A program made the translations under genes and the position numbers. Below the pieces are notes generated by a model. That model saw only the letters and a list, made by a program, of their open reading frames with translations, was not told the DNA's origin and ran no database searches. This document shows positions 32,695-53,290 of a DNA stretch of 64,000 bases, piece after piece. The DNA is taken from the IMG/VR virus record IMGVR_UViG_3300027708_000032, positions 64,066 to 128,065 of that record. One strand, 5' to 3'. This DNA is from a virus. Each line of letters starts with the position of its first letter. The stretch's first letter is position 1.

Positions 32695-35600
32695 TATCTG
32701 TAAGATTGTAATGTTTTTTGGTTAGATATTTTAAACAGCATCTTTACATCATTACTAATAGTTTTTCTAAGAAACACTCTGCTTACATTATGTCTAAACT
32801 TTTTACGTTGTAATGTATCCTTAGTATAATTAACAGCAGTGGGGTTTATGTTATATTGATAGCCATTTGCTTCTGTTATGAATAGTGGTACTTCAGCATT
32901 AGTATACTCACCACGGTCTTTTGTAATATCCCAGAACTGGTTGAATCTGTATTTGTTTTCCTCTTTAGAGAACTGTATATCTATAGAGTCAAAGTTTATC
33001 TTAGGATACTGTAACAAAGCTAACGGATTATTCTTAGTTTTAATCTGTAAGTTAAGTATTCCTGATATCTGTTCAGAGTTGTATATTATAGCTTGGTCAA
33101 AGTTCTCATCTAGGATATGAAACTTATCTCTACACTCATTCTTTATTTTATAAGCCTCTAGTAAGTATTCTATACTTCTCATAGAAACTACACTTTGTCC
33201 AGTGCTAGATACAAACTCTATTTCAAATGGATAGTCTACACCATAAAAGTTACAATAGCTAGTACATGTTACATTGTGTTTCCAAATGGTTCTGTTTTTT
33301 ACAGACATAAAATGTTTCTTACCTGGAACTAAGAATGTAGGTATCCAGTCATGGAAACTAATAAATGTTTGAGCTTTAGGATCATACGATATAGTCCAGC
33401 TAGCATCTTCAAAATATCTAGTGTCAGTGAACTGTATCTGAGTTCCTTTATAGTAAAAGTTTCCATCATCGTCAAATGTATAATCAGATCTTAATGGTCT
33501 ATAATCCTTCTTACTAAAGTATACTATTTCATTAGTATTATCATATATAGTTTGTACACCTACACCAGCTAATGGATTATCAAATAAAAGATAGTCAGGA
33601 TATACTTTAAGAAGTTCTGATGGTAGATATCTTGCAAACCACCACTTCATTCCATTATTAGATATCTCAGCAAGTTTTCCCATGTAGTTAAATATCTTAC
33701 CCTGGTTCTGACTCACCCAAAATACACCGTGCAACGTATTAATAGCAGAAAATTTATTTTGACAAGATCCATATTCATAAGCATCATCTACATTTACTAC
33801 AGATTGAAGCTGTTTATTATTATCAAACAGCTTACCATCACCCACTGTAATCTTAGTGTTTGTACCATCCATCTGAAGTTCTTCTACACCCATGAAAGAC
33901 ATTGGGCTTGTATACCTCATCATAAATAAAGCACCCGTCTTGTTGATAGACTTTATAGAAGTTATTTCAGAATCAAAGTCATAATAGTTATTAGCTAAGA
34001 AAACTCTCCAACTATCTTTCTTAGACTCATACTGTTGTGGTAGAGAGTAGATGGCTCTTAATGGTTTGTATACATAACATGCTGCTTGTACTAATGGATC
34101 ATAATCCCTTGGTAGTAAGTCTCCCCATGTTATACCACTATTAAATAATTTAGAAATACTTAAAGAATAATCATACTTATAGTAGTTACCGTTTTTAATA
34201 ACATCACTCCTAAACATAGAGTTAATATCTGTATACCCGTATGGATCATAGTGACGCTTTCCTGTTTCATCTTCCCAATCTCTATATGCTAAGTTTATTT
34301 CACTCTCACAAAAGAAGTCTCTAACACCAGAATTAAAAAGATAGAAGTGTCCACTGTTTACATACCACTTATTAGTTTTAGTAGATTCGTTTACTGACTT
34401 ATCTAAACTTCTATGTTCACTAGCTTGGTCTGCAAACAAACCAATATATTCTATTGAGTTAATCCAGTATCTAGGATAGGGAAGATTAGGGTAGAGAGTG
34501 TAGTCAAACTGTGTACCATCAGGTTCATCCATTAACCATTGTTTAAAAAAGAACATTGTGTTCTTTTCAGTAAATCTGTTTATATAGGTATCTCCACTAA
34601 AAAATACAGAAGAACTTACTCTAGCTGCTTTTATAGGAAAAGATGGTTGAATGCATTCAGATATAGAAAACTGTTTTACAGATTCAAGCTGGCCATACTG
34701 AGATCCTACAGCAAGCTTTAGTGCTCCATAATGAGATGATATAGTGGATGTAATATTTCTATTTAATACAGCTGCAGATTGGCCCATGCTAAATCTACTA
34801 GTATCAGCAACAGTAGAGTTTTCAAATGTTCCATCTGTTCTAATAATTACATACTGGCTACGCATAACATTGTTAACCAAATAATCCTGCGTAAACTGAT
34901 TAAGAGAAGAACCTACATATCCTGTATTAGTAACTTTTCTACGTCTGTTCCCTTCTACAGAACTTATCCCTGTATCATAAAATCCATGAGAGTTATATTG
35001 TGTAGCATATTGTCTATATGGTATAAGAGACAACACCATATCTAACACTTGTTGCTTTTGAACTTTAGATCCAAAGAATGCACTATATGCTGTATTAAAA
35101 ATAACGTTAGCTGCTGCAGCTGCAACTTGTAATGCTGTTCCCAATCCTCCTTGAACACCTTCAGCTAATACTTTACCAACACCTGTTTTAGTAGCAGGTA
35201 AATCTTTTTTTGAATTAGCTGATATAATTTTATTATAATCACCAACAAGTGTAGCTGCTGCTTCTACCACTGTAATAGCTGTTACAAATACATCTATAAT
35301 AGTATCAAGCTTATTACTTATCTGTTTAAACTTAGGATGTAAATAAGGTACAGAAAAACTACCTGTTGATGTACCACTAAGTTGTTGATAAAGCCTCACT
35401 TCATTTACATTAAGATAGACATTAGTAAATGTAACTTCAGGACTATGAAAAGAAAATACATCTTTTCTGTATGTAGAAAGTTGAGATGATCTAGGATTAT
35501 CATGAGCATCTCCGTTTAAACCATTTTGTTCTTCAGAAGTTAAGTATACATCTGGTCTAAGATCATTGTATGGATAGTTTTGGTATAGTCCTTTAACCGT

Positions 35601-37271
35601 ATCATTCTCAGGAATTTTATATTCCCTCATGTTGTTAAACAACCCTTTGCCAAGAATGGACTTATTACCCTCACGAGAACCTCTGAGGATTTCGTAACCT
35701 ATGATACTATCAATAGGATTACCATCTTGATCTAAAGGGTGACTAATATTATCAAACTGTACACCAAGTAATACTATAGTGTTGTTTATAGGATTGTATG
35801 TATTTAATATAGCATCCACTGTTTCATCAGGCATCTTATGATGTCTAATAGGTTTACCACAAAGATTACCCCATATATCAGGTCTGTCTGCAGGATAGAG
35901 TTCTTCACTCTGCCAATATCCCATAGCACCTGTAGCAACAACTACACCTCCGTCAGAAAGTGTACTAGTATTTCTATTTATAACATTAGCTGTGTTAGTA
36001 ACCTGCCAGGTTTTTACTTGAACACCTGAAGACATTTCAAAAGCATCTAACCCACTAGCATTAGTAATATCAGCGTTAGAAGATTTTCTACCTGGTATAT
36101 GATAAGACTCTGAACGCTCACCTGTATTATATATCCATCTTATAAAAAAAGGATACTGCTCATCTCTCATGTATGCAGCATTGTTTCCTCCTTTTACATA
36201 ATAGTCAGCAGGATATTCTACAGCCACCCATCTAGTTTTAATAAGGTTAGCTTGTTTTTGATAGTTGAACTTAAACTTACTATGAGTGCCCACTCTAATA
36301 AGATAGTTATTAACAGAATATATTGCATCTGTTTTTTCTATAGCTTGTGTTCTAAGAACAACTTCACTTAACGGTACAGCATAAAGTTCAGGATCCCATC
36401 TATCTACATAGATTGTACCCTGCACTGTAGAATAATAACCTATACGTTTACATATAGTTTGAGAGTTTATATTACTTACTATAACAAGTTCAAACTCGTC
36501 AAACCTATCATCTATTTCTAAAATTTTAACTTCTAATGCAGAGCTTACATTTTGATATGTAAATAATCCCTGCACTTCTGATAGTCCTATATAGTCTGTA
36601 ACTCTCACTTTGTTTATAGTGTACGCTATAACAGCTTGGTAAGATCCATTAGGTAAACTACCTGTTACATTAGACTTGTTAAGTTTTATACAAGGATGTT
36701 TTATAAGTTGAGCCATTCTTATAGCTTCACAATCTAATGCCGTTGTATATGTTCTTTGTATACAACCTGCCACAACTTTATCAGTGTATTTAAATGGAAC
36801 ATTATCTATATCCATAGTTCTACTAGGATTAAGAGCATCATCCCAATAGATTATTCTTTCACAGTCATATCTGTATCTAAAAGCAGCTGTAATTAAGTGT
36901 GACCTTTTAAAGTTTAAACATGGGTCGTTTACAATCTTAGTGTATGAACATTGTGACTCATCAAAGAGTCCTATTTCTGAACTAACGTCATCTGTAGTGA
37001 ATACCACCCATTGATCATCATATGTATGAACACACCCAATAAGATCATAAGGTAGAGTGATACATTTTATATTAGAAGGTTCATTTCCTATAACCCCTAC
37101 TTGACCATCATGAGAGTTGTTTACAGCATTACGTGCATGCGTATATAATCCCTCTCCTACAAAGGTCTCGTTATAGTCCTTAAGCATACCTTTACTAAAT
37201 GTATTAGTGGTACCGCTTTGGCTAGCTGTACTATCAGTAGTATCATCTGATGTTCTTCTTTTCTTAGCCAT
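32694..37271 (-). CDS. Tail stabilisation / nozzle (muzzle) protein, 1525 aa
   Basis: N-terminal FSKGMLKD...YTHARNA pattern, beta-rich composition, size, and position after the ring proteins and before the cargo genes all fit the crAss-like tail stabilisation protein. Confidence 0.75.
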   Translation of the reverse strand: MAKKRRTSDDTTDSTASQSGTTNTFSKGMLKDYNETFVGEGLYTHARNAVNNSHDGQVGVIGNEPSNIKCITLPYDLIGCVHTYDDQWVVFTTDDVSSEIGLFDESQCSYTKIVNDPCLNFKRSHLITAAFRYRYDCERIIYWDDALNPSRTMDIDNVPFKYTDKVVAGCIQRTYTTALDCEAIRMAQLIKHPCIKLNKSNVTGSLPNGSYQAVIAYTINKVRVTDYIGLSEVQGLFTYQNVSSALEVKILEIDDRFDEFELVIVSNINSQTICKRIGYYSTVQGTIYVDRWDPELYAVPLSEVVLRTQAIEKTDAIYSVNNYLIRVGTHSKFKFNYQKQANLIKTRWVAVEYPADYYVKGGNNAAYMRDEQYPFFIRWIYNTGERSESYHIPGRKSSNADITNASGLDAFEMSSGVQVKTWQVTNTANVINRNTSTLSDGGVVVATGAMGYWQSEELYPADRPDIWGNLCGKPIRHHKMPDETVDAILNTYNPINNTIVLLGVQFDNISHPLDQDGNPIDSIIGYEILRGSREGNKSILGKGLFNNMREYKIPENDTVKGLYQNYPYNDLRPDVYLTSEEQNGLNGDAHDNPRSSQLSTYRKDVFSFHSPEVTFTNVYLNVNEVRLYQQLSGTSTGSFSVPYLHPKFKQISNKLDTIIDVFVTAITVVEAAATLVGDYNKIISANSKKDLPATKTGVGKVLAEGVQGGLGTALQVAAAAANVIFNTAYSAFFGSKVQKQQVLDMVLSLIPYRQYATQYNSHGFYDTGISSVEGNRRRKVTNTGYVGSSLNQFTQDYLVNNVMRSQYVIIRTDGTFENSTVADTSRFSMGQSAAVLNRNITSTISSHYGALKLAVGSQYGQLESVKQFSISECIQPSFPIKAARVSSSVFFSGDTYINRFTEKNTMFFFKQWLMDEPDGTQFDYTLYPNLPYPRYWINSIEYIGLFADQASEHRSLDKSVNESTKTNKWYVNSGHFYLFNSGVRDFFCESEINLAYRDWEDETGKRHYDPYGYTDINSMFRSDVIKNGNYYKYDYSLSISKLFNSGITWGDLLPRDYDPLVQAACYVYKPLRAIYSLPQQYESKKDSWRVFLANNYYDFDSEITSIKSINKTGALFMMRYTSPMSFMGVEELQMDGTNTKITVGDGKLFDNNKQLQSVVNVDDAYEYGSCQNKFSAINTLHGVFWVSQNQGKIFNYMGKLAEISNNGMKWWFARYLPSELLKVYPDYLLFDNPLAGVGVQTIYDNTNEIVYFSKKDYRPLRSDYTFDDDGNFYYKGTQIQFTDTRYFEDASWTISYDPKAQTFISFHDWIPTFLVPGKKHFMSVKNRTIWKHNVTCTSYCNFYGVDYPFEIEFVSSTGQSVVSMRSIEYLLEAYKIKNECRDKFHILDENFDQAIIYNSEQISGILNLQIKTKNNPLALLQYPKINFDSIDIQFSKEENKYRFNQFWDITKDRGEYTNAEVPLFITEANGYQYNINPTAVNYTKDTLQRKKFRHNVSRVFLRKTISNDVKMLFKISNQKTLQSYR

Positions 37272-41555: not shown

Positions 41556-41590
41556 TTAAAAGTAGTCCCCAGCGTAGACACGCCAGGGAT
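41556..41590 (-). terminator. Rho-independent terminator-like hairpin ending the glycosyltransferase operon
   Basis: Minus strand CCCUGGCGU-GUCU-ACGCUGGGG forms a 9-bp stem with two G.U pairs (it pairs fully only on the minus strand), followed by ACUACUUUUAA. Lies just downstream of the 223-aa gene stop. Confidence 0.6.
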
Positions 41591-41622
41591 CTTGTTATTG
41601 GAGGAACCAACAAACCTCCTTT

Positions 41623-42294
41623 TTATTTTTTTTCTATTTTTTCTTTATTCATTCTAGACCACACAGCATCAGGATATTTATTATCAATACTATCTAAATA
41701 ATATTTTTCTTCTTCACTTATAGTAGCAGGATCTATATACCAAGGAACATGTCTACATGCAAAGTCTCCACCTATTCTAACACTTTCATATCTATAACCT
41801 GCAGCTTTAGCATCAAATGAAAATGTCATATCTGTAACTGCTTTGTAAACATTTTCTTCTTCTGTTGGATACCAGCAAACAGATTGATGATGTGTAATAT
41901 GTTTCTTTATATCGGTTTCAGGTACATCATCTAATCTTAAAACAAGACTTGGTTTTCTATTATATTTCTTATAATAGTCCATCATTATTTCTTGCCAGTT
42001 AGATGGCATGTTAGGATTAAGCTCAAGGTCAGCATCCGAGTATACATAAAAATCTTCTGTACATTTAGAAGCATGTCCACTATAAAAAAATGTCCATGGT
42101 CCTAAGTTATTCTGCTGCTTTATAATATTTACGTCATCTTTTATTTCATCATACCATTTTAGCAATGGCGGATATGTAGAAGCATTATCTATTATGTTTA
42201 TTTTAGCATTTCCATTTAACCTAAACAGATCCTCCACCATCTTTTTAGTGGTGGTAAGCCTATTCATATTAGTTAAATATATTGGATAGTTCAT
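41623..42294 (-). CDS. GT-A fold glycosyltransferase (GT2-like), 223 aa
   Basis: INIIDNASTYPPL, NNLGPW and YVYSDADLEL (DxD). Confidence 0.75.
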   Translation of the reverse strand: MNYPIYLTNMNRLTTTKKMVEDLFRLNGNAKINIIDNASTYPPLLKWYDEIKDDVNIIKQQNNLGPWTFFYSGHASKCTEDFYVYSDADLELNPNMPSNWQEIMMDYYKKYNRKPSLVLRLDDVPETDIKKHITHHQSVCWYPTEEENVYKAVTDMTFSFDAKAAGYRYESVRIGGDFACRHVPWYIDPATISEEEKYYLDSIDNKYPDAVWSRMNKEKIEKK

Positions 42295-42301
42295 TATAAA
42301 T

Positions 42302-42841
42302 TTATTTTTTAAATAAAAATATTACATCATCATACCTACCTTTAACACCTCTTAGATCTATTATTTCAAAAGGGTATCCAAGTTCTTCAAAATGTTTTTT
42401 ATCTAAATCAACATTCTGAATATCTTCTACTATTACCATACCACCTTCTAAAATATTAGGGTAAAACTTTTTTACAAAGTCTAACTGATCTTGTAACATA
42501 TGAGAACCATCATCTAAAGCTATTTTAATTTTCATACCAGTTATTTCTTCTGAAGTAACTTTATTTATATCTTTTACAATATAATTAGTTCTGTTATTGA
42601 AAGTATTAGGTATTGCACTATCCATTATATCATACCCATAAATAATAGCTTTAGTAAAATAATCTCCAAATAAACGGATACTACCTCCTTCTCTAACACC
42701 CACTTCTACAAAAACTATATCCTCATCTTTATAAGGTTTAAATAATTTTTCATAAGTTTCTAAATATGAATGAGCAGTGTTTTTATCTGTTTGATAATAT
42801 GAATAACCTCTAGAATTAAACAGCTCAGTAAGTGTTTGCAT
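42302..42841 (-). CDS. Class I SAM-dependent methyltransferase (probable sugar O-methyltransferase), 179 aa
   Basis: TDKNTAHSY, FVEVGVREGGS, YGYDI, IALDDGSH and GGMVIVED. Confidence 0.85.
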   Translation of the reverse strand: MQTLTELFNSRGYSYYQTDKNTAHSYLETYEKLFKPYKDEDIVFVEVGVREGGSIRLFGDYFTKAIIYGYDIMDSAIPNTFNNRTNYIVKDINKVTSEEITGMKIKIALDDGSHMLQDQLDFVKKFYPNILEGGMVIVEDIQNVDLDKKHFEELGYPFEIIDLRGVKGRYDDVIFLFKK

Positions 42842-43607
42842 TATGTATGGTTTTTATATTTATAATTTTTCCATTAGCTATATCATATGTAGCATCTTTA
42901 TGCAAAAGCATTTCTTGTTTAAGATGTTCAACATCTAGTTTAGTATTTCTAGTTTCACCTATTCCACCCTTATGACTTATTTCAAACGCAAACTTTTCAC
43001 ATGGTACCGTCATAGGAGGATTAAAATGAAAGTAGGTATTTATATAGCTCTCATCATTTACACCAGGTTCATACGGTATTTTCTTATCTTCTATCTGCCA
43101 CTCTCTAAGAGTTTTGCAAAAGTCTACCACTCTATCTTTCTTACCACCAAAGAATGCTCCATAGTGATATGTATATGGTAGTTTACTATCTAATGGTACA
43201 TAAGCTTTAGACTTTTCAAACCTGTCAAAACCAGCACCATTTTTTAACCAGTCTCTATTACCATAGTGTTCTCCACCTACCATGTCTCCAAGAAACCAAT
43301 CTGCAGTAAAGTCTCTAGACACACTAGTATCAGCATCAAAGTAGTAGAGATAATCACTATCACAATCTGCAAGATCTACTATGTTTCTAAACTTATCATT
43401 TGTAGCATCCACCCAACTAGTATGATGAGCAGGATGATACTCTACCTTTATATCATCAGATATATAAGCAGCAGGATCTTCATCTGAAAAAAAGTAAAAC
43501 TTAATTTCAGACTCTCCTTTATAATGATGCATAAACTTTTTAATAAATCTAACCCCTAGAACGAAGTAGGAGTTAGTAGCTAGTATTACTATTCCTATTT
43601 TAGACAT
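42825..43607 (-). CDS. Glycosyltransferase family 6 (ABO / alpha-1,3-galactosyltransferase-like), 260 aa
   Basis: KIGIVILATNSY, DYLYYFDAD (DxD), YHYGAFFGG and NDESYINTYF are hallmark GT6 motifs. Confidence 0.85.
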   Translation of the reverse strand: MSKIGIVILATNSYFVLGVRFIKKFMHHYKGESEIKFYFFSDEDPAAYISDDIKVEYHPAHHTSWVDATNDKFRNIVDLADCDSDYLYYFDADTSVSRDFTADWFLGDMVGGEHYGNRDWLKNGAGFDRFEKSKAYVPLDSKLPYTYHYGAFFGGKKDRVVDFCKTLREWQIEDKKIPYEPGVNDESYINTYFHFNPPMTVPCEKFAFEISHKGGIGETRNTKLDVEHLKQEMLLHKDATYDIANGKIINIKTIHNANTY

Positions 43608-44512
43608 GATGTTTGTTTGGTTTTTATAATTTCTTGAACGTAGTTAAAAGAGCAGAAGTTTGTATTAAATGCTTGGTTTTCTATATCTGCATATGGTAGC
43701 TTGCTCATGTATGCACCCTTGTAGAAAAGATCTTTTCTGTCTGCTGTTACGCCAGCATTGTGAAAGATGGGATGCTTATCATAGTCTGATATATGAGAAG
43801 TGGCCCATGAGAATGAAAGCTTATCAGAAACTTTTACAACACCTCCAAAGAACCATAGGTTCCATAGTACAGCCCACATATCAGCACACCATATCTGTAG
43901 TGCATGAGGTGGGTTATCTTTTTTAATCTGGTCATTAACCATTCTAAAAAGATTTTCAGAGTCATAATACACTTTCTTCCAAAACTCTACAGGAATATTT
44001 TTCATGAGATACTGAGCTCCACCACTTTCTTTCTCATTAAGAACTACATGTTCTTTGTTTACATTCACTATAGATGTCATTAAATCTAGATAGTGCTCTC
44101 CTTTAGAACGTATATAGTTAGCACCTATGTAACTGACAGTATCACTTACATAGTTTATCTCATCTTGTAATAGTTCACTAAAGTCTATAGGTTTGCTAAA
44201 AATAATATCACAGTCATGGTAGAATACTGTTTCCTTTGCTAGTTCAGGATAACGCAGCCAATGCTGGTGCAGAATATGGGGACGTATACTAGAAATATAC
44301 CCTGGTTTAACTCTTTCATCTTTGTAAAAGAAAAATCTAACAGTGTTATAATTAGCTGCTAGCTTAGTCCAATTTTCTGGAATCTTTCCTGAATAACCAG
44401 CTACTATTTCTATATTATTAGGATTAACTCCATTTTTAATAAAGTTGTTAATCATAACCTCCACCTGCCAAGTATAGTAGTCTATAGCAGGTTGTGCACA
44501 AATAAATCTCAT
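43595..44512 (-). CDS. GT-A glycosyltransferase resembling peptide O-glycosyltransferases (GT95 HPAT / GT96 SGT-like), 305 aa
   Basis: YYTWQVEV, YISSIRPHILHQHW, VFYHDCDIIF (DxD), GGAQYLM, WCADMWA and IFHNAG resemble, by eye, the Y-x-x-W-Q / NKP / D-x-D / W-x-x-EMY / IxHY motifs of plant HPAT/SGT enzymes. Confidence 0.6.
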   Translation of the reverse strand: MRFICAQPAIDYYTWQVEVMINNFIKNGVNPNNIEIVAGYSGKIPENWTKLAANYNTVRFFFYKDERVKPGYISSIRPHILHQHWLRYPELAKETVFYHDCDIIFSKPIDFSELLQDEINYVSDTVSYIGANYIRSKGEHYLDLMTSIVNVNKEHVVLNEKESGGAQYLMKNIPVEFWKKVYYDSENLFRMVNDQIKKDNPPHALQIWCADMWAVLWNLWFFGGVVKVSDKLSFSWATSHISDYDKHPIFHNAGVTADRKDLFYKGAYMSKLPYADIENQAFNTNFCSFNYVQEIIKTKQTSCLK

Positions 44513-44539
44513 ATGTTGGTTTTAGTTTGGTTTTATTTT

Positions 44540-46165
44540 TTAACAAGCTACATCAACTAATACAATACTTGCTCCACTTACTCCTCCAGCATCATCAAGG
44601 AATACTCCAGTAAATGTTATAACTCCTGGTGCAGTTATTTGTACACAAGTTGGTGTACCATTGGAATCTGTTAATATTACAGAACCATGAATATCAAAAT
44701 TATTTATAGTTACTTCAAAATCATATAAACCATTAGGTAATGTAATAGTACCATCTTGTAATGATGTAAGAGGGTATGTTCCAGCATCTAATGGTAAAGG
44801 TAATCCTGAACCTAGATCAGTTATTGATAGTATTTCCATACCATAAGTAACATCTGAATTTTGAATATGCATTATAGTAACAGTAGGATTAACTGTAGTC
44901 GTTGTACTAGTGGTTGTTGTTATAGCAGGATCAGCTGTTGTTGTTGTCGTTGTAGTAGGCTCTACAGTTGTAGTTGTAGTTGTAGTAGGTTCTATAGTAG
45001 TGGTCGTTGTAGTAGGTTCTGCTGTTGTGGTTGTAGTAGTTGTAGGTATTTCAGTGGTAGTAGTTGTAGTAGTAGGAATATCCTGACATACATATTGTGT
45101 ACCAACTGGAACACAATCTGGACCTTCTATAAATGAAGTAATACAATTTGCACCAATAAGTGGATTAGAACCACAAACTGTATAAGATCCTCCAGGAGGT
45201 AAACTTGGTACATATTGTAATATACCATTACAATCATTATATTTAGCTGCAATTGGATCAGAATAAACAGCACATGTGTTAAAGAAGGTTATGCAATGAC
45301 AGTTAGGAGCTGGATTAGGAGCAGGACAAGCTACACCAGGTGTAACTGTAACACCAGCTATTGTAGGAATAGAATCTAAACAAGCACAGATTTCTGCTGT
45401 ATTATTTAAAGGATCTCCAAGTACAACAACACCGTTAGGATCAGGTAGACCTGTCAAACAATCTGTAAATGGAACTGTTACATCAAAACCAGAATTGTTA
45501 GTAACAGTATATGTAGCACACTCACATAAGAATGGAGCAAATGGACTAGCTGTTGTTGTAGTAGTAGTGCTAGACGTAGTACTTGTTGTGCTAGTAGTTG
45601 TAGGACATAAATCTAATGCATTAACTACACCATTGATCATTGTAACCACTCCTGGCTGACCACCAATAATATAATAACCATTTGGTACAAGTGTACAATC
45701 TGTAGTATCTCCATTATATATAACAGATCCATATGATAAAGAAGAACCTTGTGCAGTTATACCTGTTAATGTATTTCCACCTGGATCAGCTAGATATTGG
45801 TTATATGCATTACAAGCATCTACAAGATTAGCATTAAAGCTTACACCATTTATAGCAGTATTAAAATTATAGGTAGTCAATCCTGTAGGTCTTACACATA
45901 CAGTGGTAGTAGTTGTGGTGGTAGTTGTACAAGGGTCAAGCTGTGCAATAATAATATTAAGAATCTGTGTTACAGTGCTACCACTTGTTATACCATAACA
46001 TGTTAAGTCTGGTCCATTGTATATAATACAATCAGACTGATAAGCTTCTTCACATATTATAGCATCAGGGCACAACGTTGTTGTGGTTGTTGTTGTAGTA
46101 CCCACCTTAGCTGGAGGACAACAACATGGTAAGTTATAGTATGAATTATTGCAACCGCACGCCAT
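44540..46165 (-). CDS. Cys-rich, mucin-like poly-Thr protein, 541 aa
   Basis: Several Thr runs including EPTTTTTT repeats between Cys-rich globular segments. N-terminal C...YNGPDLTC domain. Confidence 0.8.
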   Translation of the reverse strand: MACGCNNSYYNLPCCCPPAKVGTTTTTTTTLCPDAIICEEAYQSDCIIYNGPDLTCYGITSGSTVTQILNIIIAQLDPCTTTTTTTTTVCVRPTGLTTYNFNTAINGVSFNANLVDACNAYNQYLADPGGNTLTGITAQGSSLSYGSVIYNGDTTDCTLVPNGYYIIGGQPGVVTMINGVVNALDLCPTTTSTTSTTSSTTTTTTASPFAPFLCECATYTVTNNSGFDVTVPFTDCLTGLPDPNGVVVLGDPLNNTAEICACLDSIPTIAGVTVTPGVACPAPNPAPNCHCITFFNTCAVYSDPIAAKYNDCNGILQYVPSLPPGGSYTVCGSNPLIGANCITSFIEGPDCVPVGTQYVCQDIPTTTTTTTEIPTTTTTTTAEPTTTTTTIEPTTTTTTTVEPTTTTTTTADPAITTTTSTTTTVNPTVTIMHIQNSDVTYGMEILSITDLGSGLPLPLDAGTYPLTSLQDGTITLPNGLYDFEVTINNFDIHGSVILTDSNGTPTCVQITAPGVITFTGVFLDDAGGVSGASIVLVDVAC

Positions 46166-46185
46166 TTTATTTATATTTTAATGTT

Positions 46186-47043
46186 TTAAAAACAACTACC
46201 TAAATCTATTATTAAACCTGTAACATCAACTCTATATACAGTATCATATGAATCTAGTGACATTCTATATAAACCAGGATTTACTGGTGTACCATATGAA
46301 TCTGCATATATATAACACCCTAGCCCTACTGTTTCACAGTTACTATACACTTCATATTCTTGACCATAACAATCATACATATTAAAAGGAGATGGCCTAC
46401 CTGTAGGAGATGTAGTAGTAGTTGTAGGTAGTGGTGTAATATCATTTATAACACCTGCTTTAATATTATAACAGTTAAAGCCATCTGAATAAGTACCATC
46501 TATTACTACACTTGTAAGATATGGATCAGCATATAATGTATTACAAGGAGGATTTAGGGTTAATGAGAAACATCCTGAAGGTAAATAGTATGTTGTAGGA
46601 TTGAGTAAAAACTCTTCTCCTGCTGTAATACAAGATGTTGAATTAGTAGTTCCACCATACCCTAATAATATAGGAACACCAGGAGCAGTGGTTGTACTAG
46701 TCGTTGTACTAGTAGAAGTTGTGCTTGTAGTAGTTGGTTCTAGTGTTGTAGTACTTGTCGTTGTAGATGTTGTAATAGGTTCTAATGTAGTGGTAGTTGT
46801 AGTAGTAATGATATTTAAAAAGATGTCTAAACTAACTGGACAATCTATAGCAGTAGATACCACTCTTATAGTAACAGCATCATTAGGTACATTAATAGAT
46901 ACAAACCCAGCCAAAAGCTGAGCTCTTGTAACACCTGTTTCAAAAGGACCTGTAACCACTCCTGTATTATCTAGAGAATAGAAGTTAAAGGGACCTGTTC
47001 CAGGACCTATTGTACTTACTGTTATGATTGCTGTTTGTGCCAT
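46186..47043 (-). CDS. Mucin-like poly-Thr/Ser protein, 285 aa
   Basis: Ig-like N-terminal segment, TTTTTTTTLEPITTSTTTSTTT... tract and Cys-containing C-terminal domains. Confidence 0.8.
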   Translation of the reverse strand: MAQTAIITVSTIGPGTGPFNFYSLDNTGVVTGPFETGVTRAQLLAGFVSINVPNDAVTIRVVSTAIDCPVSLDIFLNIITTTTTTTLEPITTSTTTSTTTLEPTTTSTTSTSTTTSTTTAPGVPILLGYGGTTNSTSCITAGEEFLLNPTTYYLPSGCFSLTLNPPCNTLYADPYLTSVVIDGTYSDGFNCYNIKAGVINDITPLPTTTTTSPTGRPSPFNMYDCYGQEYEVYSNCETVGLGCYIYADSYGTPVNPGLYRMSLDSYDTVYRVDVTGLIIDLGSCF

Positions 47044-47053
47044 TTATATTCTA

Positions 47054-50000
47054 TTAAGGAGGACTAGTGGTTGTACTAGTGGTTGTTGTTGTTGGTAAAT
47101 TAGAACAATTTTGTGTTATCACTGCACCACCAGATATTTCATATACTGTTGTATAAATTGCATTTCCTGTTATTCCAACTCCAGTATAACAACCATTAGC
47201 ATCTAAAAGTGTTTCTATTTTATAATTATTTAAAGCATCTGCTGTATTAGTAATAGTAGCTCTATAAAAATGTCTATATGATCTAAGAAACTTTGAAACA
47301 TTACCTGGATATGAATCACGACACCATCCTGTTGGAATAGTTGACGTACCAAAAACACTATAAATACTACCCCAAGTTGCTGCTACTATATAATCTTGTA
47401 TCCATGCAAACATTGGATTTTGTAAAGTTGGAGCAGTAAAAGCCCATTGTATACCATATGATGAACCAGTAACTTTTATATATGTTGTGTAGCTATAAGC
47501 AGGACCTGATGTATTAATAGTGTTAGCACCATTATGATCAGAAACTCCTAAAGTTCCACAATTAGTAGCAAGACCTGAACTTCCTGGACATAATGAAGGA
47601 GTAATATAACCATAAGCTATATTAGCAAGTGTTAATGATATTGTTTTAGTAGCATTATCAAAGTTTACAAATGTTCCATAGTGAAAAATGAAATCTTTAT
47701 TAATAATAGTATCACCAGGAGTGTTGGCTACTCTCACTCTAAATACTACATATTTATAATAATCTATAGTAGTATTAGAAGGAAGAGTAAATGTTCTATT
47801 AGATGGATTATATCCAGGAACATGTATAGCCATTGCTGTAAAGTAGTCATTATAATATGAATCATAATCTGCCTGTTGACTAAATACATATGTATATGTT
47901 ACGTTACCAGTAGTTCCTGTTTTACTAATAGTATAACCACCTGCTGCTAATATATTAGTATTACCAGTATTTCCTACATTACTGCTTCCACAACTTGCTT
48001 GATTTCTTAAATAAGTCCTAATATTTAGTGTAGAAGATGTCCAAGTATATCCACCATATTGACCATCATAATATCCATAAACACCAATATATTTCATTAA
48101 ATCTGATGAAGCATTAGTATCTTGGTTAGCACCAGTACCTGTTATAGCAGGATATTGAGCAAACTGCATATCTAATGTATATCTACAAGCATTAGTATCA
48201 TATGCTAAAGTAGGATGACATACATCTAATATTGGTTTTGTATAATTTAAACTAAAGGATGCTAAACACTTCATAGATAAATCCCAGTTAGTATTAGCAT
48301 TAGCAGGAGCATTATATGAAGCTGTTATTGTAATTTTTATATAATCACCAGGAGTATATGTAAAAGGTGTTAAATTAATTACATCTTTGTAACTTTCCCT
48401 TTTTACTAATTTAGGTGTTACTGTATAGTTATCAGTAGCATTATCAGTACCTATAACTAAATCATGCATTACAGTTTCAGTTGCACCACTTACATATGAA
48501 AACTTAAGTCTATCAGCTATGAGATAACCATTAAAAAAATACGCAAAATACTGTACAGTACCGTCTAGATCAAAGGCTATTGTCTTAGAAGCTTCTGAAG
48601 CTAACTGAGTACCATTTTGATAAGCTACTAAATGCGTATAGTTACCAGTAGTAACAGTACCATTAGTGCAATTAAAGTTTTGTACTAGTATAGGTGTAAG
48701 ACATGTAGCAAGATCCGTTGCAGAGTTATATCCTGATCTAGGAGTAGATGTATATGTAATACCACCTATTGTTGCATATCTAATAACTGGCACCCAATAC
48801 CCTGCAATAACAGGAATAGTATTGGTTCCTGTAAGAGGATGAGCTGTACCAACTGCTGAACCAAACAATGCAGCACCAGCTGTTTTACCTGTTACAAATT
48901 GTACAGTACCTAATGGATCAGTTAATTGATCTTTTCTATACCAATCTATTACATAATCACTTATAATACATGCTCCTCCTACTGGAGAAAAAAGATCTCC
49001 TACATTAATAAAACCAATAGGATTTGGTTCTTGACTAAGAAATGAAGGAGTACAATCTGTACACTTGTTAAAATTAGGTATAGTGGTGGTAGTACTAGTA
49101 GTGCTAGTAGTGGTACTAGTAGTGGATGTCGTACTTGTAGTAGACGTAGTACTAGTTGTAGTAGTAGGTGCTAACGTAGTAGTACTAGTAGTGGACGTTG
49201 TTGACGTAGTACTAGTTGTCGTTGGTCTAAGTGTTGTTGTACTAGTTGTACTAGTTGTGGACGTAGTACTACTTGTTGTACTCGTAGTACTAGTGGTGCT
49301 AGTAGTAGTAGGAGCCAATGTTGTGGTTGACGTAGTACTTGTCGTAGATGTCGTAGTAGGCGGTGCTGTAGTTGTACTTGTAGTAGATGTAGACGTTGTG
49401 CTAGTAGTAGTTGGTCTTGCTGTAGTCGTACTGGTGGTACTTGTGGTAGATGTAGTTGTTGTAGGAGGAATGGTTTGTATAGCACAAACATTATCTATAA
49501 ACATATAATAAACACCATCCCCAGGTCTACTATCTACACCATATATAGAAAGGTATCCATTTCCTGTACATGTTAATGTAACATCTACAAGAGTGTTACC
49601 TATAACATTCTGAATAGCACTAGCTGTTGTACCTGCATAAACTCTTATACTTTTATTATTTAAAAAACCAGAGTTTATAATAGTAAGATCTAATGTTATT
49701 CTATATGTAAATCCTACAGTTAATACATTTTGACCAATATAACCACCTGTTGTACCACCATTATAAGCAGCTCTACCTGCATCCCATACCCAATCAGATG
49801 TAGCAGCACTAGGAAGAGCAGTTTTACCTACTTCCCATTGTGATAAATCTGTATCAAAAGATGGGTTATTAAACTGGTTAATACAATTTCTAAGTGGGTT
49901 AAGAGTTGTACTAGTTGTTGTACTACTTGTTGTAGTAGGAGCAGCAGTGGTTGTGCTCGTGGTAGATGTTGTACTGGTACTAGATGTAGTTGAAGTACTA

Positions 50001-50755
50001 CTAGTAGTAGTTATTGGAGCAGCTGTAGTTGTTGATGTAGTGCTAGTAGTAGATGTTGTACTGGTTGTAGTAGGTGTAGTTATACAAGCAGCATCACCAC
50101 AAAATCCCTTACGACCAGTTAAACCTAAAGGTGTAGGGTTTTCAAGATATGCTATTGTAGTTATAGACTGTGTACAAAAATCAATATACTCACCATAATT
50201 TAAAGTAACTAAAACTCTTCTATTATTACAATCTACATATCTAAACGAATAACTAACACCTTCTAAATTACTACCATTAACCATTGTCCAACAACCACAA
50301 GGAGGTGCAGTGGTTGTAGATGTAGTGCTCGTTGTTGTTTCTGGTGGAGCCGTAGTAGTAGACGTGGTACTAGTAGATGTAGTGGATGTCGTTGTACTTG
50401 TAGTGCTTGTTGTACTTGTGGTACTAGTCGTACTGGTAGTGGATGTTGTAGATGTTGTGGTTGTCGTAGATGTTGTAGTAATATAATAAGTCTCGGCTGT
50501 ACCACCTACCAACTGACAACAAACCTCTGGAGGAAAGTATACAGCAAGAATGTTTAGTAACACACTCATTAATGATTGACCATTAGTAACATTTATACAT
50601 TCATGATCTGGTCCTGAATAAGTTACACAATCAATATCTGGCTTTTCTTCACATGGATCAATAGGCTGACAAGTAGTAAGTCCTGTAACACCTGGTGGTG
50701 TACAGAACATACATGGGTCACATGTTTTAGAAGCAGTATTACAATTACAAGCCAT
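47054..50755 (-). CDS. Large mucin-like Thr/Ser-repeat protein with Cys-rich and possible carbohydrate-binding-like domains, 1233 aa
   Basis: Three long TTS-repeat tracts. FNNPSFDTDLSQW begins a jelly-roll-like domain. N-terminal CVTYSGPDHEC domain. Confidence 0.8.
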   Translation of the reverse strand: MACNCNTASKTCDPCMFCTPPGVTGLTTCQPIDPCEEKPDIDCVTYSGPDHECINVTNGQSLMSVLLNILAVYFPPEVCCQLVGGTAETYYITTTSTTTTTSTTSTTSTTSTTSTTSTTSTTTSTTSTSTTSTTTAPPETTTSTTSTTTAPPCGCWTMVNGSNLEGVSYSFRYVDCNNRRVLVTLNYGEYIDFCTQSITTIAYLENPTPLGLTGRKGFCGDAACITTPTTTSTTSTTSTTSTTTAAPITTTSSTSTTSSTSTTSTTSTTTAAPTTTSSTTTSTTLNPLRNCINQFNNPSFDTDLSQWEVGKTALPSAATSDWVWDAGRAAYNGGTTGGYIGQNVLTVGFTYRITLDLTIINSGFLNNKSIRVYAGTTASAIQNVIGNTLVDVTLTCTGNGYLSIYGVDSRPGDGVYYMFIDNVCAIQTIPPTTTTSTTSTTSTTTARPTTTSTTSTSTTSTTTAPPTTTSTTSTTSTTTLAPTTTSTTSTTSTTSSTTSTTSTTSTTTLRPTTTSTTSTTSTTSTTTLAPTTTTSTTSTTSTTSTTSTTTSTTSTTTTIPNFNKCTDCTPSFLSQEPNPIGFINVGDLFSPVGGACIISDYVIDWYRKDQLTDPLGTVQFVTGKTAGAALFGSAVGTAHPLTGTNTIPVIAGYWVPVIRYATIGGITYTSTPRSGYNSATDLATCLTPILVQNFNCTNGTVTTGNYTHLVAYQNGTQLASEASKTIAFDLDGTVQYFAYFFNGYLIADRLKFSYVSGATETVMHDLVIGTDNATDNYTVTPKLVKRESYKDVINLTPFTYTPGDYIKITITASYNAPANANTNWDLSMKCLASFSLNYTKPILDVCHPTLAYDTNACRYTLDMQFAQYPAITGTGANQDTNASSDLMKYIGVYGYYDGQYGGYTWTSSTLNIRTYLRNQASCGSSNVGNTGNTNILAAGGYTISKTGTTGNVTYTYVFSQQADYDSYYNDYFTAMAIHVPGYNPSNRTFTLPSNTTIDYYKYVVFRVRVANTPGDTIINKDFIFHYGTFVNFDNATKTISLTLANIAYGYITPSLCPGSSGLATNCGTLGVSDHNGANTINTSGPAYSYTTYIKVTGSSYGIQWAFTAPTLQNPMFAWIQDYIVAATWGSIYSVFGTSTIPTGWCRDSYPGNVSKFLRSYRHFYRATITNTADALNNYKIETLLDANGCYTGVGITGNAIYTTVYEISGGAVITQNCSNLPTTTTTSTTTSPP
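49080..49465 (-). repeat. Degenerate Thr/Ser coding repeat (TTS)n
   Basis: About 125 codons, almost all Thr/Ser, with recurrent AGTACT/ACTAGT hexamers; broken by ARP/APP/LAP/LRP spacers. Confidence 0.9.
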
Positions 50756-50768
50756 TTATTAGTTTTTA

Positions 50769-51362
50769 TTAAGGTGCTGGTGGTAAACTATTATAACAAG
50801 GATCTACTATAGTATATCCTGTTTGTGGTAAACAATCTGCCTGTAGTTCACCATATATATAAATGTATCCAGTGTTATCTGCATTTCTCACTTTAAGAAT
50901 AGGAAAGTCTGTTCCTAATACTTTAAGAATATATGATTGTTCAGAGTTAAATTCAGGAATACTATTATTTCCAGAATAACTTATTTTATATCCTATTACT
51001 TTAATTCTATCATCTCCTAAATCATTTACCATAGATACAAAACTTTTACCTGTTATTGGAAAATTTATTTCAGATACTGTAATTGTTTCTGAACCTAATA
51101 TTAATGCACTAGTTTTATAATTATTACTAGCAATCCCTTTCCAAAATAATATATAACAACTAGCTGGAAGTTCTGTAATAGTGAGGCATCCAGATGATGC
51201 TGTAAGATCACCACTAAGTGTCGTATATGTAACACTTGTTGCAGTATCTTCTATGTAAAAACTTCCTATAGAAGTCTCTATAGTATATGGTGTACCACTT
51301 ATAGTGTAGTTAATTCTTATTACACCTGATGTTCCTGAAACTGTTATTAAACAAGCAGCCAT
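50769..51362 (-). CDS. Hypothetical beta-rich structural protein, 197 aa
   Basis: ORF track; tightly packed in the operon. Confidence 0.6.
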   Translation of the reverse strand: MAACLITVSGTSGVIRINYTISGTPYTIETSIGSFYIEDTATSVTYTTLSGDLTASSGCLTITELPASCYILFWKGIASNNYKTSALILGSETITVSEINFPITGKSFVSMVNDLGDDRIKVIGYKISYSGNNSIPEFNSEQSYILKVLGTDFPILKVRNADNTGYIYIYGELQADCLPQTGYTIVDPCYNSLPPAP

Positions 51363-51381
51363 TTATATAAATTTTAAAGTA

Positions 51382-51954
51382 TTAAGTTAAAGGACAAGTT
51401 GGAAGACCAGAATAACCATTCATACTTGCATATGTTACAAATTTAAAATAACCTTTAGCATCTGTAGGAGGAGTTATTCTATTAGCAGTTGTATTAACAA
51501 CTAATTCTAAATTATTAGCTATTGAAGAAATAGTAGTTATTAATATATAATTAAGTGTTCCAGTATGAAAATCATTATTTGTACTACTATAATCTACAAA
51601 TGCTACACCTGGAATATTTAAAATTTCATTTTTTAAAGCTGTAGGATCATTAAATCTACCAGGATCCCATGATCCAAAACTTGTTGAAAATGCAGTGTAT
51701 ACACCATTTAAAACATAACCGATTAAAGAAGGATCACCTCCACCTTGAGCTTCCCAATATTGTCTATTATTTCCATCATCTGCTGCAATAGGAATAGGGC
51801 ATATATAACAACCTAATTTTTGTAAATTATCTGTATTAGCACAACCATTTTGTGAAGAAAATATATCTGGATTAGATAGACTAACAATAGTAGCACCTGC
51901 AGGTAGAACATAACTATCACCAGGAGCTAATGTTAATGATTTATAAACTGGCAT
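51382..51954 (-). CDS. Hypothetical beta-rich structural protein, 190 aa
   Basis: ORF track; tightly packed in the operon. Confidence 0.6.
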   Translation of the reverse strand: MPVYKSLTLAPGDSYVLPAGATIVSLSNPDIFSSQNGCANTDNLQKLGCYICPIPIAADDGNNRQYWEAQGGGDPSLIGYVLNGVYTAFSTSFGSWDPGRFNDPTALKNEILNIPGVAFVDYSSTNNDFHTGTLNYILITTISSIANNLELVVNTTANRITPPTDAKGYFKFVTYASMNGYSGLPTCPLT

Positions 51955-51966
51955 ATTATTAATTTT

Positions 51967-53238
51967 TTAAATACTATAAACTACGGTTAATATTTCTCCT
52001 GTTGTAGAAGTATTGCTGATTGTACAACAATCTCCAAAGTATGGTATTACGCTTACATTCAAACACTTAATACAAGTGATATCATCATTAGTAAAACATG
52101 CATTAGCTGATATTGTAAGACCTGTTGTGACATCTACACCGCCAAGTGTTGTAACATCAAAACTGTATAATGGATTAAGAGTAAGATCATCTAACACACC
52201 GTCATGAATGGTAGGGTCAGCATCTCTTAACTTAAGACCAACAGTAGTAGCAATGTTACCCAAACCATCTGTAAGTGTAAGTACTGTTTCTCCACCACAG
52301 TCATAGAAGCCCATAGGAAGGGTTGTTCCTGTAAAGAATAATCTAAGAGTGTTCTTATCTATCCACTTGTAACTAATCTTGATTATTACATTTTCACAAC
52401 TAACTTGACAACATGTAGTGAGTATTAGATTAACAGCTGATCTTATATCACATACAGTGAGCCATAAGTTTTGTAAGTTCTGAGCTAGTGTTGTAGGAGT
52501 GTTAACCCAACCTGTAATAGCAGACATGGTCTGTTTAGGATTAACCAATTGTTTAGTAGATCCTGTTACGCACACTACACTTGGAGCATATGAGCTTGTT
52601 AACTGTGATGTACTACCTAATACTGTTTTATAACTACAGAACTCACCTTCTAAGTTTTCTAACACTACATCTATATCTTCTATAGCTCCTAATAAACAGC
52701 TAGACACTGATAATGTAGGGGTAGTAGCATTTTGTAAATTGATTACATCTTGCTGTAGTTGAGCTATATTTTGAGTGTTTGTATTTATTTGAGCCCATGC
52801 ATTACATAGCACAGTGGCTATTCTTTTAACTAAGTCACTAAGTACTAATGATGTAAGAACACCACCAGTTATTTCTGGACAATAAGTTGTAAGATCAATA
52901 GTAGGTTCTACATATGGAGTGCCTGGGTTAGGAATATTCTTTACAATATCAGAAAGACAGCATACTTTATTAACTAATAATGTTAGTATGTTAGTAAGTG
53001 TTTTCTCTGGCTCTGGTGTAGTCTGACATACTTGTACAAGACATGTTAAATCTATATCAGTAAGTCCTAAGTCTGCTTTAAGCTGACATACTTCTACAGC
53101 TGTTTTATAAACCACATCAGAGATACTATCTCCTTTACAAAGATTTATACAAGGTAAATCTGGACCCTGCCATACCACACAATTAGAGGATATGGGAGAA
53201 CAGTTTTCTTTATTTGAGTTAGACCTGATTGGTACCAT
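51967..53238 (-). CDS. Cys-rich fibre-base/adaptor-like structural protein with a short coiled coil, 423 aa
   Basis: CVVWQGPDLPC domain shared with the mucin-like proteins; INTNTQNIAQLQQDVINLQN heptads. Confidence 0.6.
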   Translation of the reverse strand: MVPIRSNSNKENCSPISSNCVVWQGPDLPCINLCKGDSISDVVYKTAVEVCQLKADLGLTDIDLTCLVQVCQTTPEPEKTLTNILTLLVNKVCCLSDIVKNIPNPGTPYVEPTIDLTTYCPEITGGVLTSLVLSDLVKRIATVLCNAWAQINTNTQNIAQLQQDVINLQNATTPTLSVSSCLLGAIEDIDVVLENLEGEFCSYKTVLGSTSQLTSSYAPSVVCVTGSTKQLVNPKQTMSAITGWVNTPTTLAQNLQNLWLTVCDIRSAVNLILTTCCQVSCENVIIKISYKWIDKNTLRLFFTGTTLPMGFYDCGGETVLTLTDGLGNIATTVGLKLRDADPTIHDGVLDDLTLNPLYSFDVTTLGGVDVTTGLTISANACFTNDDITCIKCLNVSVIPYFGDCCTISNTSTTGEILTVVYSI

Positions 53239-53258
53239 TTTATTAATTTTTAACTAGT

Positions 53259-53290
53259 CTATATTATAATATACTAAATTTTGAAGAGTT
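53259..53290 (-). promoter_or_regulatory. Candidate phage late promoter upstream of the mucin-like/glycosyltransferase operon
   Basis: Minus strand AACTCTTCAAAATTTAGTATATTATAATATAG; GTATATTAT core shared with the 60.9 kb and 62.25 kb elements. Confidence 0.5.

Follow-up and report, generated by a model that had tools for sequence, protein, structure and literature searches.

Background

Sugar coats on phage particles are known experimentally only from mycobacteriophages, as far as the literature that we searched and the passages citing that work go. According to one such passage, phage-encoded glycosyltransferases (GTs) modify virion proteins in these phages, with the glycans attached to capsid and tail-tube subunits at their C-termini, where they shield the particle from antibody recognition (PMC12619734); a passage in a second paper also mentions mycobacteriophage virion glycosylation (PMC12582341). 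In this study, we analyzed a window of 64,000 nucleotides (nt), positions 64,066-128,065 of the virus record IMGVR_UViG_3300027708_000032, in which genes for three proteins with long threonine/serine (Thr/Ser) tracts directly precede those of four putative sugar-modifying enzymes. From sequence comparison we consider it likely that this is a late-gene module of a crAss-like phage, encoding tail-appendage-like tract proteins together with enzymes that would glycosylate their linkers, and that a protein of 305 amino acids (aa), belonging to the unnamed family phrog_4417, would initiate the modification. Coordinates without a prefix refer to the whole window.

In a 2023 paper in Cell Host Microbe, Freeman et al. 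are said to have reported virion O-glycosylation in Che8, Corndog and Myrna. The locus described here resembles the mycobacteriophage system in that GT genes lie within the structural genes and next to Ser/Thr-rich segments. Judged by the descriptions in the citing passages, it differs from this nearest known system in enzyme family (phrog_4417), in phage order (a crAss-like phage), in likely host phylum (probably Bacteroidota) and in acceptor architecture: the candidate acceptors are not short C-terminal tails but long linkers, of up to 131 aa, within fibre-like proteins. Neither this enzyme family nor poly-threonine acceptors in phages nor virion glycosylation in crAss-like phages was described in any paper found by our literature search, whose reach did not extend to Freeman et al. 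2023.

Several more distant systems share single features with the locus. The serine-rich-repeat adhesin pathway of Gram-positive bacteria is a cytoplasmic multi-enzyme route for the O-glycosylation of very long Ser/Thr-rich repeats in surface fibres, as is proposed here; it is initiated by the GT-B pair GtfA/B and continued by GT8 enzymes such as GlyE, which with Z 13.2 is among the fold matches of the 305-aa enzyme, and the glycosylated adhesin leaves the cell through an accessory Sec system, whereas the phage system would operate with no GT-B enzyme and no export, its carrier being the phage particle. The plant and algal enzymes HPAT (GT95, PF23452) and SGT1 (GT96) put the first sugar on peptide hydroxyls, as the 305-aa enzyme is proposed to do, but the acceptor here would be Thr/Ser runs and not hydroxyproline. 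The GT6 family includes the ABO transferases, alpha-1,3-galactosyltransferase, BoGT6a from Bacteroides ovatus and the GT6 of cyanophage P-SSM2; a 260-aa protein of our locus is a member by Pfam and, unlike BoGT6a with its N-x-N, keeps a D-x-D motif. We did not find in the literature a description of a GT6 placed after a poly-Thr protein and a 305-aa enzyme. Lastly, Chlorella virus PBCV-1, a eukaryotic giant virus with atypical N-linked glycans, uses virus-encoded cytoplasmic GTs on its own structural protein, as we propose here, and a domain of its A064R is among the fold matches of the 305-aa enzyme (2p6w, Z 11.0); unlike the phage system, it has no Thr/Ser tract acceptor.

Gene organization and threonine/serine tracts

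The large genes of the window are all on the minus strand, as are all features given below unless noted otherwise. Positions 41623-53238 are filled by ten co-directional, closely packed open reading frames (ORFs): in the order of transcription, three ORFs of 423, 190 and 197 aa are followed by the tract proteins of 1233, 285 and 541 aa, then by the 305-aa enzyme, a 260-aa GT6, a 179-aa methyltransferase and a 223-aa GT2-like protein. The 305-aa and GT6 genes overlap by 13 nt, the GT6 and methyltransferase genes overlap by 17 nt, and 7 nt separate the methyltransferase from the GT2-like gene. This order and tight packing, taken from the ORF coordinates, and the three Thr/Ser-rich proteins of exactly 1233, 285 and 541 aa, taken from the translations, agree with what an earlier note on this DNA had claimed.

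The largest of the candidate acceptors is a fibre-like protein of 1233 aa (47054-50755) with tracts of 61, 62, 131 and 14 aa; its layout comprises a 90-aa N-terminal module, modules of 73 and 143 aa, and a 659-aa C-terminal domain, and its small modules contain cysteine (Cys). In the 285-aa protein (46186-47043), three small globular modules are joined by tracts of 44 and 11 aa, while the 541-aa protein (44540-46165), which is rich in Cys (5.5%) and encoded directly upstream of the 305-aa enzyme, has five tracts of 12, 13, 22, 50 and 13 aa. A sliding-window map assigns 433 residues of the three proteins to tracts, namely 271 Thr (63%), 73 Ser (17%), 31 proline (7%) and 15 alanine, so that the proteins carry long Pro/Thr/Ser-rich tracts of the mucin-like kind with 344 candidate acceptor residues. 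Tracts are encoded at 44888-45079, 46681-46812, 49076-49468, 49898-50083 and 50303-50485. Ser and Thr together make up 33% of the 1233-aa, 29% of the 285-aa and 27% of the 541-aa protein, against 8-15% of the enzymes and of the giant ORFs described below, and among the ORFs of 150 aa or more in the 128,065-bp genome none besides these three has a comparable content. The tract count covered the 64-kb window, where the 5424-aa ORF has one run of 11 aa.

The DNA repeats that encode the tracts are imperfect, with 62-81% matches in most arrays and 86-90% in two short ones. All four Thr codons occur in them, and the otherwise rare codons ACC and ACG account for 56 of the 271 Thr codons inside the tracts (21%) versus 8 of the 193 outside (4%). 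The tract composition is therefore maintained at the protein level and is not the product of recent slippage; the excess of ACC and ACG may represent codon diversification that limits slippage or recombination. Plus-strand ORFs that run across the tracts (e.g. 49065-49508) are antisense artefacts of the repeats.

Outside the tracts, the first ~75 aa are common to the 1233- and 541-aa proteins (50486-50755 and 45935-46165; 37% identity, E 1.6e-5), and the N-terminal module of the 285-aa protein has homologues in related loci. The shared N-terminal Cys module, which in relatives that lack the 305-aa enzyme occurs on short (~217 aa) proteins free of tracts (e.g. L116:6717-7373), may serve to dock exchangeable fibres. 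Many cysteines are invariant, an oddity for cytoplasmically synthesized proteins. A Pfam search of the ten globular pieces of the tract proteins found no family.

The 305-aa enzyme

The proposed initiating peptide O-glycosyltransferase (305 aa, 43595-44512) matches phrog_4417 in PHROGs (E 9.5e-71), a family annotated as of unknown function, and it matches no Pfam family at E ≤ 0.1, no NCBIfam model and, by sequence, no solved PDB chain at E ≤ 1. Among 3394 candidates, 3101 proteins belong to the family at E ≤ 0.001; the family counts 856 clusters at 50% identity, and the 120 members listed bear neither a Pfam domain nor an informative name.

An AlphaFold model of the protein built from an alignment of 51 diverse family members has a predicted local distance difference test score (pLDDT) of 97.8. 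Its matches in VIA-align, over 211-243 residues, are Skp1 alpha-galactosyltransferase (Z 14.7), glycogenin (14.6), LgtC (14.5), UGGT (14.3), WbbM (13.9) and GlyE (13.2), the structures involved being 6mw8, 1zcu, 1g9r, 6fsn, 6u4b and 5gvv; Foldseek, which places the model among the same type of enzymes, matches it to 7zle (E 8.6e-8). In the family alignment, the DxD motif D100/D102 has a nearly invariant D100 and an invariant D102. We therefore predict with high confidence, on the basis of the model, that the 305-aa protein folds as a retaining GT-A transferase of the GT8/GT24 type with a DxD motif; fold and motif agree on this type, and there is no sequence match to Pfam Glyco_transf_8 or a related family. 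Several of the best fold matches are enzymes that act on proteins or on protein-bound glycans.

The label GT95/GT96-like, under which the earlier note had introduced this enzyme, lacks support from hidden Markov models and keeps only a resemblance in language-model features and among a few relatives. The HPAT/GT95 model PF23452 does not match the 305-aa protein at E ≤ 0.1; nor does it match the whole genome at E ≤ 10 or the five cultured phages with a homologue, although both of these tests are weak because the control genomes were silent too. The same model matches 2 of the 51 family members at E 0.09. With the language-model features of the ESM-Atlas, 21 of the 30 nearest named clusters fall in the set bearing PF23452 (scores 0.97, a measure that comes with no alignment or E-value), and in the two Atlas clusters shown PF23452 is found on 10% and 58% of members. 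Fold searches with the 305-aa model turned up no solved GT95 structure. Kinship with GT95 is thus an open lead and not a membership.

Linkage of enzyme and tracts across phages

To place the locus among other phages we searched IMG/VR with the 305-aa protein, confirmed 333 of 341 candidate stretches and kept 80 loci, near-duplicates included. We counted an ORF as tract-bearing if it had at least 20 aa of S/T tracts, and recorded its position relative to the 305-aa homologue on the same strand. The ORF directly upstream (position -1) is tract-bearing in 61 of 80 loci, compared with 14 of 77 at position -2, 10 of 75 at position -3 and 3 of 676 over all downstream positions; a tract-bearing ORF is present somewhere in 74 of the 80 loci. 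When the tracts are masked, the 61 carriers at position -1 fall into 9 unrelated groups.

The same association is found in cultured phages, of which 77 records carry a homologue, most commonly from Lactobacillus (23), Enterococcus (21), Staphylococcus (11) and Lactococcus (8), with one from Chryseobacterium. In all six cultured-phage loci that we examined, poly-Thr runs occur on proteins beside the homologue, and in five of the six some of the run-bearing proteins are annotated as head or tail. The runs are on the major head and major tail proteins in Enterococcus phiFL1A, on the major tail protein in VPE25, on the major head, a small head-module protein and the major tail in Lactobacillus PLE3, on the tail tube in Clostridium phiCTP1, and on one or more proteins beside the homologue in Iacchus and in Chryseobacterium MA9V-3. 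In phiFL1A no other GT is annotated near the homologue, which fits a peptide-directed initiating enzyme.

Within the phage's own lineage, marked by the neighbouring exonuclease, we compared 72 rows with at least 7 kb upstream, one of them this genome's own row; 8 of the 80 loci, with less than 7 kb upstream, and 1 further locus were omitted. Tracts lie upstream in 15 of the 15 rows with the enzyme and in 3 of the 57 rows without it. The co-occurrence of poly-Thr ORFs and enzyme in related phages, which the earlier note had named as a test, holds for the IMG/VR loci, the cultured phages and the lineage alike. One lineage locus (L097, from IMG/VR) has a Thr/Ser-tract ORF (2-997) and no 305-aa homologue in the 10 kb examined, while its sister locus L096 has both; in L097 the enzyme may lie beyond the examined stretch, or the locus may be a true exception.

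These patterns bear on an alternative that we regard as unlikely, in which the tracts are plain unmodified flexible linkers and the cassette acts on a host surface polysaccharide, lipopolysaccharide (LPS) or capsule, for instance to block superinfection or to alter the dying cell, or on a lipid-linked glycan. GT2, GT6, GT25 and Caps_synth-type enzymes do usually make polysaccharides or LPS, the solved GT6 nearest to ours is from a Bacteroides bacterium, and the tracts are candidate acceptors. An enzyme directed at polysaccharides would leave unexplained why tract genes sit so often at position -1 and so rarely downstream, why short poly-Thr tails occur on non-homologous head and tail-tube proteins of the cultured phages that carry the enzyme, and why 54 of the 57 lineage relatives without the enzyme have lost the tracts. 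In a crude hydropathy scan by eye, which is not a predictor, the enzymes also have no N-terminus resembling a signal peptide.

Partner enzymes of the cassette

Glycosylation of the tracts by the 305-aa enzyme would be followed by the action of three partners. The 260-aa protein (42825-43607), for which we propose the addition of alpha-linked galactose (Gal) or N-acetylgalactosamine (GalNAc), is a GT6, as had been claimed: it scores 41.5 bits against PF03414 (cut-off 25, E 9.5e-11) and matches 72 solved GT6 chains at E ≤ 0.01, the best being BoGT6a (4ayj, E 1.7e-10). In the HMMER alignment its D-A-D lies opposite the N-A-N of BoGT6a, and D-E-S is conserved, so that both the DxD and the catalytic-site glutamate are present; we take the Glu of the D-E-S motif to be the catalytic residue. 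Against the NCBIfam model NF041524, for a glucosyltransferase subfamily of family 6, the protein scores 74.1 bits, far below the cut-off of 250. Its phage GT6 matches are only 25-30% identical to it; Prochlorococcus phages are among those with GT6 genes.

The 179-aa protein (42302-42841), proposed to O-methylate the glycan, matches phrog_21658 (E 2.5e-16) and the PDB entries 3ssm (E 1.5e-8), presumably MycE, and 8ia9, a demethylmacrocin O-methyltransferase (E 5.3e-7). It thus appears to be an S-adenosylmethionine (SAM)-dependent methyltransferase related to the O-methyltransferases of macrolide deoxysugars (MycE/TylE/TylF type), which fits methylation of a sugar. The 223-aa GT2-like protein (41623-42294), proposed for the extension step, has the motifs D-N-x-S and D87-x-D89, whose residues D36, S39, D87 and D89 are kept in each of five homologues. 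PF00535 matches three of the five at E ≤ 0.01 (best 3.9e-5), and one homologue also carries a fused FkbM methyltransferase. This GT-A signature makes a GT-A fold probable, and a profile of the protein found no relative by sequence among solved structures.

The identity of the partners changes from locus to locus. In 7 of 80 loci the gene right after the 305-aa homologue codes for a GT6 homologue. Ten long family members that we scanned carry, fused to the 305-aa domain, a GT6 (2), a GT2 (3), a DXD sugar-binding GT region (2), a Methyltransf_24 (1) or a radical SAM/SPASM domain (1). For the downstream positions +1 and +2 we scanned 101 of 122 distinct ORFs, 21 having been omitted by hand as opposite-strand, cut by a contig end or near-copies of loci already present, and found GT2 in 15, Gly_transf_sug in 7, GT6 in 6, Methyltransf_24 and FkbM in 4 each, and GT25 and APS kinase in 2 each. 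The APS kinases and methyltransferases hint that other phages may make glycans that are sulfated or methylated in various ways. We interpret the arrangement as a putative constant core and a tailoring cassette that varies: a tract-bearing protein and the 305-aa enzyme make up the core, the cassette comes after it, and this locus is among the fuller examples. As side observations, the radical SAM and SPASM fusion (protein P0125, 658 aa) is an unexpected partner for a GT, and the variable cassette of loci L006-L085 also includes three TcdA/TcdB-type GT domains and several other methyltransferases.

This variability also informs a further alternative, quite unlikely in our judgment, that the tracts are indeed glycosylated but a host enzyme or another phage enzyme initiates, the 305-aa enzyme extending or recognizing the glycan. 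The best fold matches do include enzymes acting on existing glycans (UGGT, Skp1 alpha-galactosyltransferase, GlyE and LgtC), and we identified no peptide-binding feature in the 305-aa enzyme. It is nevertheless the only enzyme constantly linked with the tracts, while its partners are exchanged between loci, and in phiFL1A its homologue is the sole GT annotated near the tagged proteins.

Proposed pathway

If the 305-aa enzyme initiates, glycosylation of the linkers would take place in the cytoplasm of the host, ahead of or along with particle assembly. As a metal-dependent retaining GT-A enzyme it would transfer the first sugar, alpha-linked, from a nucleotide sugar onto the Thr/Ser hydroxyls of the tracts. 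The GT2-like protein and the GT6 would then extend the glycan, the GT6 adding alpha-linked Gal or GalNAc to a galactose-bearing acceptor, and the MycE/TylE-like methyltransferase would cap a sugar by O-methylation. The product would be stiff, extended, protease-resistant and hydrophilic spacers that hold the globular modules away from the tail. We infer from the comparisons above the acceptor role of the tracts, the initiating role of the 305-aa enzyme and the virion location, as well as the sugars and the sequence in which the later enzymes act. The roles suggested in the earlier note, in shielding, in adhesion or as glycan bait, are speculative.

In a bolder version of this pathway, which we think highly improbable, the tracts would form a mucin mimic whose blood-group-like alpha-Gal/GalNAc caps and methylated sugars serve as a ligand for the glycan-capture proteins of the Bacteroidota host, a reversal of the usual adsorption in which a lectin of the host binds a glycan of the phage, and the enzyme and the poly-Thr run would be a portable tag-and-writer pair open to acquisition by any structural protein of a phage.

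Several points weigh against glycosylation of the tracts or limit how far it can be taken. The evidence for it is entirely comparative, and we found no glycan, glycoprotein or virion proteome for this phage or for others that carry the enzyme family. The GT-A fold is widespread, and likeness of fold does not reveal the acceptor. At position -1, a tract of 20 aa or more is missing in nineteen of the 80 loci, and six loci have none anywhere in the stretch examined; the position and lineage counts also overstate the number of independent events, since near-duplicate IMG/VR loci were left uncollapsed. In the lineage, the three relatives noted above have tracts with no enzyme within 10 kb, and on the exonuclease tree the presence of the enzyme changes only 4 times, 2 of these changes being forced by supported branches; an independent-pairs test on this tree had 2-4 usable pairs, too few to reach significance. 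The three tract proteins match no recognizable family in Pfam or PHROGs, apart from compositional matches below cut-off to Pfam Mucin (16.4 and 17.4 bits vs 34.7) and a weak match of the 285-aa protein to a tail protein (phrog_14018, E 0.0041), and their place in the virion is deduced from gene position and from the N-terminal module that they have in common with a conserved fibre-like protein. Two of the partner assignments made in the earlier note stay below the Pfam cut-offs: the methyltransferase scores 18.3 bits against Methyltransf_24 (cut-off 26.3) and 14.5 against TylF (cut-off 23), and the GT2-like protein 21.5 against PF00535 (cut-off 23.3). As a reading of comparative evidence, the central proposal of that note, that the phage encodes the O-glycosylation of neighbouring poly-Thr/Ser proteins and that the 305-aa enzyme would initiate it, holds up in the co-occurrence of enzyme and tracts and in the domain fusions.

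The locus points to an enzyme family different from that of the mycobacteriophages, with thousands of members almost all unannotated, that travels with poly-Thr tracts in phages of Bacteroidota and of Gram-positives alike. If poly-Thr-directed O-glycosylation is indeed its function, this would account for a large set of phage genes now called 'hypothetical', crAss-like phages would be able to carry mucin-like glycoprotein fibres, with a bearing on phage stability, immune recognition and adsorption, and a Thr run with its writer would make a compact tag for glyco-engineering.

Genome context and neighbouring genes

The virus record is a single contig of 128,065 bp with 34% G+C, for which CheckV gives a completeness of 100%; the window is its second half, and the other half codes for the terminase, the portal and the major head protein. 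A megablast of the whole region against cultured phages gave no match. The large terminase subunit (TerL), aligned over 84-90% of its length, has ~25% identity to its counterparts in crAss-like phages that infect Bacteroides and Flavobacterium, a tally that includes Cellulophaga phages, and downstream of the cassette a 1525-aa protein (32694-37271) belongs to the muzzle family (PF25731, 106.1 bits vs a cut-off of 27, E 2.1e-30). The two together support the assignment to a distant crAss-like phage of the Crassvirales type, borne out here as it had been proposed. A C-terminal type IX secretion sorting domain on a 571-aa protein (G000:C1:43951-44184, locus L171, minus strand; PF18962, 35 bits, cut-off 27) probably fits a Bacteroidota host. 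The module sits in the structural block, between the portal/capsid genes and the crAss muzzle gene; with the muzzle gene downstream and structural genes in the other half, this puts the cassette within the tail portion of a structural block of the Crassvirales type. That the GTs modify phage DNA as base hypermodification against restriction, with the Thr-rich neighbours incidental, is very improbable even though DNA-decorating phage GTs are well known according to a citing passage (PMC12619734): no thymidylate-synthase/hydroxymethylase family was found in this 100%-complete genome, while control genomes gave matches, which lowers the case for DNA as the target; the genes are in the late structural block and not in the replication block, the methyltransferase resembles sugar O-methyltransferases, and the linkage with tracts would be left unexplained.

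The ends of the transcription unit are less well defined than its gene order. The hairpin that the earlier note placed at its close, near 41.57 kb, is present as a terminator-like structure at 41566-41589 (minus strand), with 10 pairs, 6 of them G-C, followed by a T-rich tail, and its placement in the 128-nt intergenic gap past the last enzyme gene is suggestive; such sites are, however, no commoner than chance, with 5 in 13 kb vs 4.8 in shuffled sequence. The promoter-like motif claimed at ~53.27 kb does not stand out: the sequence at 53295-53266 matches 9 of 12 sigma-70 positions, and 57 such sites were found against 68.3 expected, in a scan that covered sigma-70-type sites. The 5' end of the unit is undefined, because same-strand genes run on upstream with similar spacing.

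The first gene of the cluster codes for a Cys-rich, fibre-like protein of 423 aa without tracts (51967-53238), whose N-terminal ~330 aa are conserved in the lineage and whose C-terminus is variable; we mention it as context and not as a demonstrated part of the system. It has a short Cys/G-P-D motif (53140-53238) in common with the 1233- and 541-aa proteins, at E 8e-4 in a single comparison. Its predicted model (pLDDT 71) has long helices and a weak FN3-like C-terminal sandwich; against the PDB nothing was found at E ≤ 0.001, the best matches being FN3 domains over the C-terminal sandwich (E 3.9e-3), and the model speaks neither for nor against a tail-fibre identity. Neither Pfam nor PHROGs assigned a family to the neighbouring proteins of 190, 197, 232, 368, 423 and 1465 aa.

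Downstream of the muzzle gene there is a 5424-aa ORF (3167-19441) and a run of ORFs of 1000-1600 aa (3-3164, 19475-22585, 22640-27076 and 28072-32694), all with almost no cysteine. Three of these giant ORFs had no match in PHROGs; judged by their position, they may be ejected cargo or virion RNA polymerase proteins of the crAss type. Just upstream of the terminase gene, a 352-aa ORF (L002:11293-12351, minus strand) has no NCBIfam match and a weak match to a PHROG glycosyltransferase (E 2.4e-4), and may be a fifth sugar enzyme encoded outside the cassette.

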